From contig JBDRCZ010000017.1 in the NCBI GenBank assembly GCA_043821285.1, forward strand, positions 15,947 through 79,946: a stretch of DNA of 64,000 nucleotides, given 5' to 3'. Each line of letters opens with the position of its first letter. Position 1 is the stretch's first letter. A program made the translations under genes and the position numbers. Under the pieces are notes generated by a model. It did no database searches and was not told the DNA's origin. It was given only the letters and a program-made list of their open reading frames with translations. This document shows, in pieces, positions 10,501 to 25,575 of this stretch. Source of the stretch: Candidatus Omnitrophota bacterium (lineage in GTDB: Bacteria; Omnitrophota; Gorgyraeia; B26-G9; JBDRCZ01).

Positions 10501-10969
10501 TAAGTTTACGGTGACAAAAAGAAAACAGGAAAAAATGGCAGTAATTAAACTGGAAAATCTTGACGGAGCTATCGAAGTAGTGATTTTTCCGGAAACGTTT
10601 AAAAAGGTACAAAATAATGTTCGTGCAGACGCAATAGTATTTGTTAAAGGTAACGTAAACGTTCAGGAGGGATTACGTCCGAAAATCATTGCCCGTGATT
10701 TAATTCCGCTGGAAGATGTATCTTCTTCTCTTACTCAGTCAATAAGTTTACAGGTCGACCGGATAAACCATGAGGAATGTTTAATAAAAATAAAAAACAT
10801 TGTTAGAAATCATCCGGGAAAAGTACCCCTTTATTTAAATTTCAACAGTAGTGTACGCACCCCAACACAAATACTTACGGGAATGAAAGTTAAACCGACG
10901 GAAAAGCTGCTCAATGAGTTAGAAGACCTCATCGGAGCAGATAATATAAAATTCGAGCTCTCTCAATAA
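7529..10969 (+). CDS. dnaE: DNA polymerase III alpha subunit
   Basis: PHP domain FVHLHVHTQYSLLDGA, polymerase core GPGRGSAAGS and LPDIDIDF, 1146 aa. Confidence 0.95.
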   Translation: MKHSDFVHLHVHTQYSLLDGACMIDNLVDQAYQLKMPALAMTDHGNMFGTIEFYQAAMNKGVKPIIGCEVYIAPESRLKKTSKAGRDTAYHLLLLAKDEQGYKNLMKLVSIGYLEGFYYKPRIDKEILGKYAKGLIGLSSCLKGEIPVLIASGLIEQAKKTTAEFIDIFGKDDFYLELQDSGITQQRTVNRHLLEFARQFEILPVATNDVHYLLKEHAQAHEILLCIQTQTTLADPGHMRFQTEEFYLKNPQEMHSLFSDVPQALRNTLAITEKCNLELDFSKVYLPKYKVPDGKKPEIYLSELCHHNLKTRYPEPTEIICNRLMHELKVIKDLGYASYFLIVWDFINFAKQKSIPVGPGRGSAAGSIVSYLLGITDIDPLKYDLLFERFLNPERISLPDIDIDFCYERREEVIKYVTEVYGKENVAQIITFGTMAAKGVIRDVARVMGLPYVDADRIAKLVPYDINITLQDAINNVSELTNLYKTDPTIRQLLDTSLSLEGLTRHASTHAAGVVISSDRLTEHVPLFKPNDAGQISTGYPMGALEKIGLLKMDFLGLKTLTVIDQTLKILKRTGNLELIIEHIPPDDKKTYQMLSEGNSTGVFQLESSGMREILRKLRPEMFEDLIAILALYRPGPLGSGMVDDFIKRKHNKTKIKYDHKLLEPILKDTYGIIIYQEQVMRIVNILAGFTLSQADTIRRAMSKKIPEVIDQLRNSFIEGAVKRNINKRIAEKIFNLIEYFAGYGFNKSHSAAYAQISYYTAYLKANYPVEFMAALLTSEKDNTDKIALYIDELKRMNIKILPPDINESFGKFTVVGGAIRFGLSAVKNVGIVAVDAIVRSRIEKGAFTSLYDFSERVDLRTVNRKVIESLIKCGAFDSFKKSRACLITSIDNALEVATSMQKDKQNGQLTFIDNFGYSLFNKKENDNIEVKEWPQGQLLSFEKEMLGLYITGHPLAQYAKILSKFNHCSLKNIAEFNNNDVMLGGLIVKVKFTVTKRKQEKMAVIKLENLDGAIEVVIFPETFKKVQNNVRADAIVFVKGNVNVQEGLRPKIIARDLIPLEDVSSSLTQSISLQVDRINHEECLIKIKNIVRNHPGKVPLYLNFNSSVRTPTQILTGMKVKPTEKLLNELEDLIGADNIKFELSQ

Positions 10970-10996
10970 AAAATTTCTTTTACGAGAAATTTTTTA
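10970..10996 (+). terminator. putative intrinsic terminator after dnaE
   Basis: AAAATTTCT-TTTACG-AGAAATTTT followed by Ts. The stem is entirely A/T, so it is weak. Confidence 0.4.
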
Positions 10997-11082
10997 TGTA
11001 TTTTTTACTAAAACCTGTGTTCAAAAGGGCTTGACCAAGTTAGTAAAATCTGCGATCATCCTGTGTTATTGTGTTATTTAGT

Positions 11083-11111
11083 TTGACAAATTAACAGTAA
11101 TAACTTATTAT
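11083..11111 (+). promoter_or_regulatory. sigma70-like promoter upstream of the pilT leader
   Basis: TTGACA (11083-11088), 17-nt spacer, TATTAT (11106-11111). Confidence 0.5.
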
Positions 11112-11270
11112 AGTTATTGCTGAAAAACCCCAGCAATGACTTGATTACAGTGATATTCGTCCTTTACCTTTGCTGAAAGGTCATTGCTTGAACTAATGCC
11201 AAGTTACATCAAGGGAAAAAGCTGCAGCACTTAGAGAAAGCTTGAAAACCGTAGGTTCTAATATCACAAG

Positions 11271-11319
11271 CTGGACGAGTCAAAAGCAAGCATGATAAAG
11301 AATAATTTGACTCGTCCAG
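11271..11319 (+). promoter_or_regulatory. 14-bp perfect hairpin abutting the pilT start
   Basis: CTGGACGAGTCAAA (11271-11284) pairs with TTTGACTCGTCCAG (11306-11319), with a 21-nt loop. It ends 1 nt before TTG 11321. Confidence 0.6.
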
Positions 11320-11320
11320 T

Positions 11321-12718
11321 TTGAAAAAAACTACGATTATGAGAATTGAAAGTAGAAAATCTACGCGGCTCCGTACGCGCTTACGAATTAAATATCAGAT
11401 TGTTGCCAGTGACGACAGTTTATCAGGTCCAGTATATACAACTAACCGTGATATAAGCGCAAGCGGGATGCTGTTTGAAAGCCCGCGATTAATACCAATT
11501 GATACAGAACTTTACATAACTTTTAATATCCCGGGAATTGATCATCCCTCCCATGTTAAAGGAAGAGTTATCCGCATTGAAGAAAAAGAATTGGGTAAAT
11601 GGTTTTTAATTGGGGTAATTTTTACGGAAATAACGGATGATAATAAAAATGAGATAATCCGCCGCATCGAATTAATGGATATAATGCGGTTATTGCAGGT
11701 TACACATCAACGGCATGCCTCAGATTTACATTTAACTTATAATCGGCCGCCAATCTTGAGAATACATGGAAATTTAAAATTACTGGAGATGGAACCATTA
11801 GATTGTGATGATTTAAAAAACATGATCTATAGTATAATGACAGATGATCATATAGACAGATTTGAAAAACTTAAAGAATTAGATTTTGCATTTTCCCCTA
11901 ATCCGGAACTGCGTTTTCGCGTTAATGTACATCAGCAGCGCGGTAATATTGAAGCAGCTTTTAGAGCGATTATGCCAGAAATACGCTCGATCAGAGAATT
12001 AGGACTGCCATCGGTAGTTGAAAATTTAGCCAGAAAAAAGAAGGGAATTATTGTAATTGCCGGAGCAACCGGAACGGGAAAAACAACAACCTTAGCATCA
12101 ATGGTTGACTTAATTAACAAAGAAAGAGAAACAGTAATAATTTGCCTGGAAGACCCGATTGAATATGTGCATACTAATATTAATAGCATTGTTAAGCAAA
12201 GAGAAATCGGAACCGATACCCTGTCTTTTGCCGGCGCCCTAAAACAAGCGCTACGGCAGGACCCTGATGTGATTATGATTGGAGAGATGTTAGATGCCTC
12301 AACGGTTCGTACCGCAATAACCGCCGCAGAAACCGGGCATTTGGTAATTACTTCTTTGCATGCACCGGATACGGTACAGGCAATTGATCGATTAATTAAT
12401 ATCTTTCCGCCGCAGCAGAAACATCAATTCAGTTTTCAACTCTCTAATTGCCTCGAAGGAATTATTACCCAACTTTTACTCCCGCGTCGGGACAGGGAAG
12501 GCCGGGTGGTAGCAACCGAGGTTATGACGATTACAGATGCTGTGCGCAATCTAATCCGCGATTGTAATACCGTACAAATTCCTTCTGTTATCCAAACCGG
12601 GGCAAAATATATGATGCATACAATGGCCGAATCCATAAAAAGATTGTATGAAAATGGGTTGATTACCAAACGTGTGGCAATTGACCATTGTCCTGAACTT
12701 GAAGAAATTTTATCTTGA
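11321..12718 (+). CDS. pilT: PilZ domain fused to PilT-type type IV pilus retraction ATPase
   Basis: N-terminal PilZ motifs RKSTR and DISASG. PilT core ASDLHLTYNRPPILRIHG, Walker A GATGTGKTTT. ATG 11339 is an alternative start. Confidence 0.85.
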   Translation: MKKTTIMRIESRKSTRLRTRLRIKYQIVASDDSLSGPVYTTNRDISASGMLFESPRLIPIDTELYITFNIPGIDHPSHVKGRVIRIEEKELGKWFLIGVIFTEITDDNKNEIIRRIELMDIMRLLQVTHQRHASDLHLTYNRPPILRIHGNLKLLEMEPLDCDDLKNMIYSIMTDDHIDRFEKLKELDFAFSPNPELRFRVNVHQQRGNIEAAFRAIMPEIRSIRELGLPSVVENLARKKKGIIVIAGATGTGKTTTLASMVDLINKERETVIICLEDPIEYVHTNINSIVKQREIGTDTLSFAGALKQALRQDPDVIMIGEMLDASTVRTAITAAETGHLVITSLHAPDTVQAIDRLINIFPPQQKHQFSFQLSNCLEGIITQLLLPRRDREGRVVATEVMTITDAVRNLIRDCNTVQIPSVIQTGAKYMMHTMAESIKRLYENGLITKRVAIDHCPELEEILS

Positions 12719-12773
12719 CATATATAATTTTATTATGATATATTAATATAACAACTAATAAAATCAAAAGTTT

Positions 12774-13262
12774 ATGATAAGTAAAGCGCTAGAAAATAAA
12801 ATCCAGGCAGTAGAAGAATATTTGGAATTGTGGCTGCGTTTTCACGACTTGTATAAAGAAGTTACACAAACGCAGGTAGTTAACCCCACTAAAGAAAAAG
12901 AATTTATGGATTTAAAAAGCTTGCTAACCCGTAAATATCAGGGACTGTTGGATACTTTAAATATACAATTAACTACGGAAGACCGCACTTTTGATGTTGT
13001 ATCACAACTCCTTTCTTTAAAAGATGTTATAAATATTTCCGAACTGCAAATGCAGAAAATTGAAACAGAATGGCATAATTCATATATTTCCTTAAATAAG
13101 ATGCTCGGGTCATTAGAAAATAGAAAAACAGAACTTGCCAATATAAGCCATGTAAAAGTAATTATTAACAAAATATTTTCTGGCCCATTGGTTTCGTTAT
13201 TATCGGTAATTATTGCCATTATTATCTTTTACTTGATTTATACAAAATTTTTTAATTACTAA
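12774..13262 (+). CDS. hypothetical protein with C-terminal transmembrane helix
   Basis: 162-aa ORF with hydrophobic tail PLVSLLSVIIAIIIFYLIY. No recognisable family. Confidence 0.4.
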   Translation: MISKALENKIQAVEEYLELWLRFHDLYKEVTQTQVVNPTKEKEFMDLKSLLTRKYQGLLDTLNIQLTTEDRTFDVVSQLLSLKDVINISELQMQKIETEWHNSYISLNKMLGSLENRKTELANISHVKVIINKIFSGPLVSLLSVIIAIIIFYLIYTKFFNY

Positions 13263-16738: not shown

Positions 16739-17125
16739 ATGAAAAAGGGAGGACCAATTGCAGAAAAACGGAAGTTTAACCGTATTATCACCGCGGATGT
16801 TGCTGTAAGCTATAAGCTGTATAATACACAAACACTTCCCATGTATCAAGAAATGATCGAAGAAGATGCAAGAAATATAAGTTTAGGTGGTATTGCATTT
16901 AAAACCCATGCGTTACTGCCTGTTGATACACCAATTGGTTTAACTATTCGTTTTGGAAAAACAGCTCCAATAAAAACTTTTGGCCGTGTTGCATGGATAA
17001 GTCAATCAGAAGGATTATCTCAATATAATGTGGGAATTCGTTTTTCCTGGTGGGTGTCAAATGAAGATCGGAAAATCCTGAACAACTATATTGACAAACA
17101 ATTGCCACCAGGAAGTTCAAACTAA
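16739..17125 (+). CDS. PilZ domain protein
   Basis: RKFNR and NISLGG motifs. The stop overlaps the next start (TAATG). Confidence 0.7.
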   Translation: MKKGGPIAEKRKFNRIITADVAVSYKLYNTQTLPMYQEMIEEDARNISLGGIAFKTHALLPVDTPIGLTIRFGKTAPIKTFGRVAWISQSEGLSQYNVGIRFSWWVSNEDRKILNNYIDKQLPPGSSN

Positions 17126-18621
17126 TGAGAAATAAATATCAGGAAGAATTATTTAATAAAATCTTTGAATTAAGTGAATGGAAAAAGACACAGCAGCTTA
17201 TTACAACCTATCTTGGTAAAGAAGGAAGATGGTGGTTCATTCCCAAGATTAGCAGAAAAACCCTATATTTGCTTAAAAATACGGTCTGTGTTCGCCAGCG
17301 GATTGCGAGTTGTATCACCAGATGGCTGCGATACCTGCAAACTGCAAAACGTAAACATACCCCGGTAATATTCACTTGTAACAATAGATATGTTTACTGT
17401 TTCCCCTTATGCCGCGGAGATAAATTATATGGCTACGTGGGCACTTGTAATGTCCGAGCAAAGATTTCAGACAATCTTCTCGAGTTTTTTGATCTACTTA
17501 TAAAAACAATCATTGAAAATGCACAAAAAGAGTTGGAACTTTCAAAGTTGTACGAAACAATTCGTCCGCGGGCAATTGCCCTTTCAACGATACATACGGT
17601 AAATCGTATTATCAGCGCAAATCTTGACCTGGATAATTTATTACCGCGTATTGCTAGATTAACTCTGCAGGTTATTAAGGCACAACGTTGTTCGATAATG
17701 TTACTGGATTCAGATAAAGATCAATTACGTCCGATGGCCGTTATTGATCTAAAACAAAAAATAGTAGATCTAAACAAAAAAGTTTTTTTAAAGAAGGGAT
17801 TGCCGGCAAAGGTTGTTCGAACGGGTAGGGCGATATTTAAAAATCAATATATATCAATTCCCATGGTCAGTGACGAAAAAATCATTGGGGTGATAACTGT
17901 TTCTAACAACATTAATAAAAAATCATTTAATTTGTTTGACTTTGAAATACTTTCAACCCTCACCGAACAAGCAGTTATTGCGATAAAAAATGCCAAACTT
18001 CATACGAAACAAAAAGAGATAACCTATGGCAGTATTAAAGCGCTGGCATCAGTTTTAGATATTGGCATGAATGATCGTTCAACTTCACCCGCGATTTTTA
18101 TAAATGTTACTATAGCAATCGCCCGGGAGCTAAGAATGCCAGAATCGGAAATGAAAATTTTGTATTTTGCATCTATGCTGCATCATGCCGGAAAAACAAG
18201 TATCCCGGAAAAAATAATCAAAAAAAGATCGCCGCTTACGGGGAAGGAACTGAACATTATAAAAAAACATCCTATTGTTGGCGCACAGATTATCCAGCCG
18301 TTAGACGACTTAGAGCCAGTGATCCCGATTATTTTACACCACCATGAACGCTATGACGGTACCGGATACCCGCAGGGATTAAAACAGAATGAAATCCCAT
18401 TTGGTGCAAGAATAATGTCGATTGCAGATTCTTTTGAAGCAATGATTTCAAAACGTCCATATCGTAAACCCATGACGGTTAAGCAGGCAATGTTGGAAAT
18501 CACCAGACATAGCGGAACACAGTTTGATCCGCAAGTGGTCGATGCATTTTGCCATGTTATTAAAAGAACCAATTACAAAAAAATATTATACAACGAGAAG
18601 TATTTTCAGAATTTTCTATAA
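17125..18621 (+). CDS. GAF domain + HD-GYP domain protein (HD dyad reads HH)
   Basis: C-terminal HHHERYDGTGYPQGL and FDPQVV blocks. The usual LHDIGK position reads LHHAGK (codons CAT CAT). The central region is GAF-like. Confidence 0.8.
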   Translation: MRNKYQEELFNKIFELSEWKKTQQLITTYLGKEGRWWFIPKISRKTLYLLKNTVCVRQRIASCITRWLRYLQTAKRKHTPVIFTCNNRYVYCFPLCRGDKLYGYVGTCNVRAKISDNLLEFFDLLIKTIIENAQKELELSKLYETIRPRAIALSTIHTVNRIISANLDLDNLLPRIARLTLQVIKAQRCSIMLLDSDKDQLRPMAVIDLKQKIVDLNKKVFLKKGLPAKVVRTGRAIFKNQYISIPMVSDEKIIGVITVSNNINKKSFNLFDFEILSTLTEQAVIAIKNAKLHTKQKEITYGSIKALASVLDIGMNDRSTSPAIFINVTIAIARELRMPESEMKILYFASMLHHAGKTSIPEKIIKKRSPLTGKELNIIKKHPIVGAQIIQPLDDLEPVIPIILHHHERYDGTGYPQGLKQNEIPFGARIMSIADSFEAMISKRPYRKPMTVKQAMLEITRHSGTQFDPQVVDAFCHVIKRTNYKKILYNEKYFQNFL

Positions 18622-25373: not shown

Positions 25374-25575
25374 ATTTTCATCGCTTTGAGGATTAAACTT
25401 GATTATTCCCTGTAGTTTGGCTATATGGTGATCTATTGGATGGAAAGTTTGAAAACCGTAGGTTTTCAAATGGATAAAAAATTTCCGTTGCTGCATTGCC
25501 TCATCAGCTTGGCAAAAGACCCTGTAATCTTGCTACAGGGATGGTCAAGCTAATGGAAATTTTTTATTAACCGAT

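Follow-up and report, generated by a model that had tools for sequence, protein, structure and literature searches.

The region considered here is a 64,000-nucleotide (nt) stretch of a Candidatus Omnitrophota genome (contig JBDRCZ010000017.1, positions 15,947 to 79,946 of the forward strand), hereafter the window, in which a gene encoding a PilZ domain fused to the N-terminus of the pilus retraction ATPase PilT follows dnaE and is preceded by a long leader with a stable hairpin close to the start codon. An initial annotation, made from the sequence alone, had pointed to the fusion and to the possibility that cyclic di-GMP (c-di-GMP) directly gates pilus retraction, and had suggested that the hairpin ending the leader could occlude initiation or terminate a short upstream RNA. 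The features at the locus are the following:

11083 to 11111, plus strand: sigma-70-like promoter TTGACA-17-TATTAT, 11 of 12 matches, joint best in the region
11112 to 11229, plus strand: 5′ part of the leader, with an 11-bp hairpin at 11112-11141; lineage-specific
11230 to 11327, plus strand: 97-nt core of an intergenic repeat called here type B (22-mer box and long hairpin), delimited by the covariance model R1
11236 to 11257, plus strand: 22-mer box GAAAGCTTGAAAACCGTAGGTT, a small hairpin with two mismatches in the window copy
11267 to 11323, plus strand: long hairpin HP3, with an 18-bp stem and a 21-nt loop, whose 3′ arm takes in the TTG at 11321-11323
11339 to 12718, plus strand: PilZ-PilT coding sequence, 459 amino acids (aa), or 465 aa if translation began at the alternative TTG 11321
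11354 to 11668, plus strand: PilZ domain, aa 6-110, with RxxxR at nt 11354-11368 and DxSxxG at nt 11450-11467
11675 to 12715, plus strand: PilT retraction ATPase, aa 113-459, with Walker A GATGTGKT, the Walker B region to E316, the His box and AVRNLIRD

The proposed architecture, a PilZ domain ahead of a complete PilT, was confirmed by profile searches in which both domains scored above curated cut-offs. The Pfam PilZ family (PF07238) matched aa 6-110 with E=4.6e-13 and 49.8 bits against a gathering score of 22.5, covering profile positions 3-100 of 102, and the NCBIfam family TIGR01420 (PilT/PilU) matched aa 115-452 with 414.1 bits against a cut-off of 319.1, covering model positions 2-339 of 343; the Pfam T2SSE match extended over aa 115-397. 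The PilZ motif residues are in place, RKSTR being R6 to R10 and DISASG D38 to G43, with the spacing of c-di-GMP-binding PilZ domains, where D/NxSxxG lies about 20-30 residues after RxxxR. On the PilT side, the motifs GATGTGKT, DPDVIMIGE, TGHLVITSLHA and AVRNLIRD were found, the last of them where a motif of the AIRNLIRE type was expected. Judged at the level of sequence, the window protein is thus a member of both the PilT/PilU and the PilZ families.

The two domains are joined directly. In the alignment of Protein Data Bank (PDB) sequences, residue 1 of Pseudomonas aeruginosa PilT pairs with aa 113, so that the PilT part starts at its own M-D-I, and the PilT chains of Geobacter, Aquifex and Pseudomonas cover aa 111-457, with best matches of 309 bits for PilT versus 224 bits for PilU. 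A PDB sequence search together with Foldseek recovered the fusion in none of the solved structures, and the PilZ part alone gave no significant PDB match in the sequence search. Foldseek against Geobacter PilT4 returned TM-scores of 0.82-0.92 (normalised to target length) at 45% identity. In the AlphaFold2 model (pLDDT 86.5, pTM 0.69), the PilZ β-barrel occupies aa 16-98 and is followed by a helix at 103-112, a two-residue break and the first PilT helix at 115-124; as modelled, the PilZ/PilT junction is short and not flexible, with no linker.

The residues that define both domains are strongly conserved. R6, R10 and G43 do not vary across 35 close relatives, S40 is kept in at least 90% of them and position 38 reads as D or N in the alignment; in the same alignment G247, K248, the catalytic E316, H334, A401, I406 and R407 are invariant, and the ATPase motifs are intact. 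Conservation of R6, R10, S40 and G43 remains at or above 90% among 32 representatives that share 29-58% identity with the window protein. A word-indexed search collected about 60 clusters (90% identity) carrying both domains, 55-74% identical to the window protein and with source names of Omnitrophota/Omnitrophica, the PVC group or simply 'bacterium', and an exhaustive search with aa 1-140 yielded 262 proteins at E≤0.001, with Omnitrophota and candidate division Zixibacteria among the source names. The survey for PilZ-PilT fusions that had been suggested earlier thus led to at least about 31 full-length clusters (448-506 aa, 50% identity) spanning the PilZ/PilT junction among the matches listed (150 of 262). 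A metagenome-assembled genome (MAG) labelled Planctomycetales encodes a 461-aa fusion with RQYVR and DLSPNG. When genome contigs were scanned with patterns in the PilT core taken from the family alignment, mostly ordinary PilT was recovered, one locus (L007) being a fusion and two others (L002 and L003) plain PilT. The exact look-up of the window protein gave no record, and no published description of a PilZ-PilT fusion was found in the literature; from its sequences, PilZ-PilT is a conserved, previously undescribed family. As a separate observation, many proteins of 700-790 aa match the PilT part and bear the source name PilT (Myxococcota, Lentisphaerota, Armatimonadetes, Oligoflexia and others); judged from length alone, they look like doubled or extended PilT.

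Canonical PilZ domains are known to switch molecular machines on c-di-GMP binding, as in the YcgR-type brakes and in BcsA, where PilZ is fused to the enzyme under its control, although the targets there are the flagellar motor and cellulose synthase rather than a pilus motor. Among type IV pilus motors, extension ATPases of the MshE/PilB type bind c-di-GMP through an N-terminal MshEN (T2SSE_N) domain, and the messenger acts directly on the motor (PMC4624772, PMC5013675, PMC7096442). PilZ-PilT is predicted to share with them a hexameric secretion-type ATPase carrying an N-terminal c-di-GMP receptor domain, and differs in that an extension motor with the MshEN fold is found there and the retraction ATPase PilT with a PilZ β-barrel here. 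PilZ-fold proteins also contact a pilus motor ATPase in the Xanthomonas PilZ-FimX-PilB complex and in the case of Pseudomonas PilZ (PA2960) (PMC8389850); those are separate, motif-less PilZ proteins acting on PilB, whereas the present PilZ is fused in cis, has both motifs and would act on PilT. Since such non-binding PilZ proteins working with pilus ATPases exist (PMC8389850, 10.1101/2020.02.11.943704), the PilZ domain of the fusion could serve as an adaptor or scaffold without binding c-di-GMP, as in Pseudomonas and Xanthomonas; the known non-binders, however, are devoid of the binding motifs, whereas in the fusion the conservation of RxxxR and D/NxSxxG equals that of the Walker A lysine, and we consider an adaptor role unlikely. 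Direct gating of retraction by c-di-GMP, as first proposed, is plausible on the basis of these motifs.

The leader of the window gene appears to have a different history from the gene itself, judging by the loci of its relatives. Six of eight relatives' loci (L081, L082, L083, L085, L191 and L192) are syntenic, with the gene order dnaE, PilZ-PilT, a 161-aa open reading frame (ORF), HU, hisS and a dGTPase-like gene, L082 showing the first two genes only; two more distant fusion members are located elsewhere, outside the dnaE-hisS neighbourhood. In the window, 369 nt separate the dnaE stop from the PilZ-PilT start, and the equivalent spacers measure 74 (L081), 57 (L082), 18 (L083), 42 (L085), 32 (L191) and 25 nt (L192). 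The promoter placed at 11083-11111 by the initial annotation is present, with 11 of 12 matches, in an AT-rich stretch where promoter-like matches are common (nine found versus 8.0 expected). The short spacers of the two closest relatives contain TTGACA-17-TATGAT (L081) and TTGACA-17-TAACAT (L082) just before the starts, and the L081 promoter and that of the window share 20 of 29 positions, among them ATAACTTAT ahead of the −10 hexamer, so that the window promoter looks native; it is probably the PilZ-PilT gene's own promoter. Moreover, the −10 hexamer lies 14 nt from the ATG in L082 and 15 nt separate the hairpin from the ATG in the window, as would be expected if about 212 nt (11112-11323) had been inserted between the −10 hexamer and the start codon. 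Within the extra spacer upstream of the promoter, an AT-only, terminator-like stem of about 14 bp (10966-11000, AAAAAATTTCT...AGAAATTTTTT) was noticed directly after the dnaE stop.

The 14-bp perfect hairpin reported at the end of the leader was verified: CTGGACGAGTCAAA at 11271-11284 is matched by a perfect reverse complement at 11306-11319. The full stem is 18 bp long, pairing 11267-11284 with 11306-11323 and including one G-U pair, and HP3 has an energy of −27.7 kcal/mol and a z-score of −6.6, with none of 200 shuffles equally stable. It is this hairpin that gives the complete leader (11112-11360) its folding z-score of −4.8, as the segment without it (11112-11266) reaches a z-score of −1.35, which is not unusual. 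In the leader, the only small ORFs were of 20-26 aa on the minus strand and without support, and they were rejected as candidates.

A hairpin so stable and adjoining the start region could be regarded as part of a cis-regulatory device evolved for PilZ-PilT, such as a riboswitch, a thermometer or a translational occluder, and several copies of the related repeat described below also abut gene starts. The proposal that the hairpin occludes initiation would apply to the alternative start only: TTG 11321 lies within the 3′ arm of the stem, whereas ATG 11339, from which the protein would match the two closest homologues (460 aa) in length, lies 15 nt beyond it, together with the A-rich upstream stretch, and in the minimum free energy structure both are partly in a weak 4-bp local hairpin. 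The stretch before the start is A-rich and without a Shine-Dalgarno sequence, as for many genes in the window. The Rfam check suggested for the leader returned nothing on 10900-11450 up to E=10 other than chance-level matches, c-di-GMP-I and c-di-GMP-II riboswitches included, and no family for the leader or the repeat in searches of the leader, of the entire window and of eight repeat loci. The same method found a c-di-GMP-I riboswitch of 74.7 bits in one of the repeat loci (L129, 1406-1495, minus strand), about 700 nt from a type B repeat on the same contig; a near-threshold match to LOOT RNA (43.8 versus 46.4 bits) was also seen in L097 (2393-2490, minus strand), cut by the contig end. In addition, R1 gave no match in nine homologous PilZ-PilT loci, the six syntenic loci have the short spacers given above, the module also adjoins unrelated genes, and the remaining leader is not unusually structured. 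The idea of a dedicated control device for this gene was thus not upheld, and we judge it quite improbable.

It had also been suggested that the hairpin terminates a short upstream RNA. In such a case, the promoter at 11083 would drive a separate small RNA of about 200 nt ending at the hairpin, with PilZ-PilT transcribed from elsewhere or by read-through, an arrangement to which the strong promoter match followed by a stable stem would lend itself. However, the tail after HP3 consists of UUUG followed by A7 (UUUGAAAAAAA) and has no U-tract, so that HP3, whose loop moreover measures 21 nt, is not a canonical intrinsic terminator; the terminator scan did not report the site; the family copies of the hairpin end in GGTTGGG, which is likewise not U-rich; and no other promoter was found between the hairpin and the ATG. 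This explanation is very unlikely.

The origin of the leader is better understood from the recurrence of its 3′ module. The 22-mer box occurs again in the window at 25443-25464, with zero occurrences expected by chance, and an exact scan of metagenome contigs for GAAAGYTTGAAAACCGTAGGTT revealed 105 loci; the same kind of scan for the 14+14 hairpin arms gave zero matches. The box was found within 150 nt of a locus or contig end in 42 of the 105 loci (13 expected), which indicates that it behaves as an assembly-breaking repeat. The loci were of three types. Type A comprises complete IS200-type elements of 590-625 bp, consisting of a left-end hairpin, the box, a Y1 transposase gene (142-150 aa; Pfam Y1_Tnp) and a similar right-end hairpin, and the box stands between the left-end hairpin and the transposase gene in at least 22 loci. 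Type C comprises short gene-less units in which the box is flanked by two type A-like hairpins. Type B is formed by the box, followed by TTTGACAA and by a long hairpin, for example CAACCTGGCCGAGCCAGAAC...GTTCTGGCTCGGCCAGGTTG, the unit ending right after GGTTGGG. The homology of the window leader (ACAAGCTGGACGAGTCAAAAG...TTTGACTCGTCCAGTTTG) to type B is apparent on inspection. One series of samples contains type B as a non-coding unit of 224-288 nt, the copies being 93-97% identical and set in different flanks. The 5′ parts of type B vary among groups, and that of the window matches none of them; neither blastn nor nhmmer found a homologue of 11061-11236 among the 105 repeat loci. No convincing promoter match was seen by eye within a type B unit (Ga0255058).

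The relationship was quantified with R1, a covariance model built from 11 metagenome type B cores with the window excluded, which matched 11230-11327 over the full model length with 57.9 bits and E=1.4e-11, and matched the box alone at 25437-25476. In 28 aligned R1 hits, an alignment fitted to the model itself, 94.6% of the cells are paired and 13 of the 19 long-stem pairs have changed on both sides; none of 500 shuffles reached the observed values, and slid registers did not come close. The presence of G-U pairs, which would be A-C on the other strand, suggests that the given strand is the one that folds, as RNA or as single-stranded DNA. The R1 alignment also showed two non-standard pairs in the box hairpin of the window copy, which suggests decay. 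The family is not in Rfam 15, and no description of it was found in the literature. Short structured multi-copy units that occur in 5′ untranslated regions (5′UTRs) and are able to alter expression of the next gene are exemplified by the pneumococcal BOX and the neisserial Correia elements; type B is a similar modular intergenic repeat with no sequence relation to them.

The box shared with the left end of IS200-type elements makes the inserted element a probable relative of these, non-autonomous or chimeric. Like IS200-type insertion sequences and their non-autonomous derivatives (PATEs and REP-like elements), the leader module is multi-copy and hairpin-rich, with no inverted terminal repeats seen. 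When compared with PATEs, it has internal sequence in common with an autonomous element, namely the box upstream of Y1_Tnp genes, and occurs in multiple copies, and its hairpins are not like the ends of that element: IS200 copies carry CCCYGNGG...CCNCRGGG hairpins at both ends, from which the leader hairpins differ. The 5′ parts also vary from one lineage to another, and mobilisation by a Y1 transposase is putative. Two side observations concern the same box. The region around the second window copy (25390-25545) is a convergent intergenic segment with the box in a perfect 10-bp hairpin, a degraded IS200-type left end (AAACTTGATTATTCCCTGTAG..., with 19 nt identical to the L119 left end) and a hairpin resembling a right end, CCCTGTA-atcttgc-TACAGGG; the segment has the appearance of an IS200 remnant without a transposase. 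Furthermore, a 29-nt block, AGG-GAAAGTTTGAAAACCGTAGGTT-TTCA, is identical in IS200 left ends, short hairpin units and type B repeats (L086-L190), the flanks being otherwise unrelated, and no mention of this block was found in Rfam or the literature.

Type B could be read instead as a functional RNA module spread by duplication, one that stabilises mRNA or binds a global regulator, for example, and not as a selfish or decaying mobile element. Its structure is strand-specific with G-U pairs, the 22-mer is identical at 105 loci in very different contexts, and a share of the copies, counted below, lies within 50 nt of a downstream start. On the other hand, the exact-match search itself selects for identity of the 22-mer, the box hairpin of the window copy is degraded, other copies have no adjacent downstream gene, and enrichment at contig ends is typical of repeats, which leaves this interpretation a small probability.

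Taken together, we find it likely that the fusion is a PilT with a built-in c-di-GMP receptor and that the long leader is a separate, inserted repeat element, not a design specific to this gene. A canonical PilZ domain is joined via its C-terminal helix straight to the first helix of PilT, with no flexible linker. In the proposed mechanism, PilZ would bind c-di-GMP between its RxxxR arm and its DxSxxG strand, and the resulting rearrangement would be relayed through the short helix-helix junction to the N-terminal domain of PilT, changing the conformation of the hexamer or its engagement with the pilus platform, so that the second messenger would switch retraction. As to the leader, a structured repeat element would have been inserted between promoter and start codon in this lineage, with its right end at about 11323-11327 and its left end between 10970 and 11112, its 3′ module (box and long hairpin) being a member of the multi-copy, strand-specific intergenic repeat family. 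Transcription would then start at about 11118, leaving a 5′UTR of about 220 nt in which a very stable hairpin ends 15 nt before the ATG. Such a structured 5′UTR may, as a side effect, influence translation or the stability of the mRNA, and since type B copies are found both near and away from gene starts, the arrangement is tolerated and not specific to PilZ-PilT.

Several observations weigh against this interpretation. Plain PilT genes of 348-349 aa, without PilZ, occur in other Omnitrophota MAGs, on which account PilZ-PilT may be a specialised paralogue, and pilus genes are absent next to it. The AlphaFold2 model is that of a monomer and is silent on the hexamer, and the sign of the effect, inhibition at high c-di-GMP, is a guess by analogy with YcgR braking the flagellar motor. 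Regarding the insertion, about 100 more extra nt lie upstream of the promoter, so that the left boundary of the element may lie on either side of it; no empty-site allele of the same lineage was found, the closest relative being 74% identical in protein. In seven of 19 type B copies a co-oriented gene start lies within 50 nt of the unit's end, in the others it does not, and copies near starts could mean that the module functions in 5′UTRs. Finally, it is the shared box that carries the link to IS200, because the long hairpin is unlike the IS200 end hairpins, and no type A elements were seen in the type B-rich samples.

The genes that follow in the window include two further features of interest:

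12774 to 13262, plus strand: conserved ORF of 162 aa downstream of PilZ-PilT, with a hydrophobic helix at the C-terminus
16739 to 18621, plus strand: a stand-alone PilZ (16739-17125) and then a GAF and HD-GYP-type protein (17125-18621), 4-6 kb downstream

The first of these ORFs is without any Pfam or NCBIfam family, and a 161-aa ORF stands at the equivalent position in L081, L083, L085, L191 and L192. The GAF and HD-GYP-type protein is likely a c-di-GMP phosphodiesterase, and the same gene pair is also found in L083; since both stand-alone PilZ and GAF-HD-GYP genes are encoded in the window, c-di-GMP signalling is present in this bacterium. A promoter-like sequence, TTGACA-18-TATATT with a TG extension (12715-12744), overlaps the PilT stop codon. 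Farther away, on the minus strand (29833-63891), there is a run of very long ORFs of 995, 2146, 2363, 1891, 1241 and 1310 aa, in which the 2146-aa and 2363-aa ORFs have near-identical 30-nt upstream sequences (ATTTGGAATTAACT...); the run resembles the giant-gene loci typical of Omnitrophota.

The known control of type IV pili by c-di-GMP involves the extension ATPases (MshE/PilB) and accessory proteins, and a PilT with its own PilZ sensor would add the retraction half as a direct target. It is about an even bet, going by sequence features, that PilZ-PilT forms a self-contained c-di-GMP-gated retraction motor, which would be the first case of the messenger acting directly on the retraction ATPase and would switch retraction within one polypeptide in Omnitrophota, Zixibacteria and related lineages. 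The striking hairpin at the start codon calls for caution, as it marks a hitherto undescribed family of repeats having a box in common with IS200 elements; this type B family is itself a modest result for the annotation of Omnitrophota genomes. The fusion family is conserved and placed in a fixed housekeeping neighbourhood in Omnitrophota, and it offers a simple one-protein system for studying how PilZ transmits ligand binding to a hexameric motor; as Omnitrophota are without routine genetics, the biochemistry of recombinant protein is the practical route. If the proposed gating is true, a c-di-GMP step could control attachment to host cells in these largely attached or predatory ultra-small bacteria.

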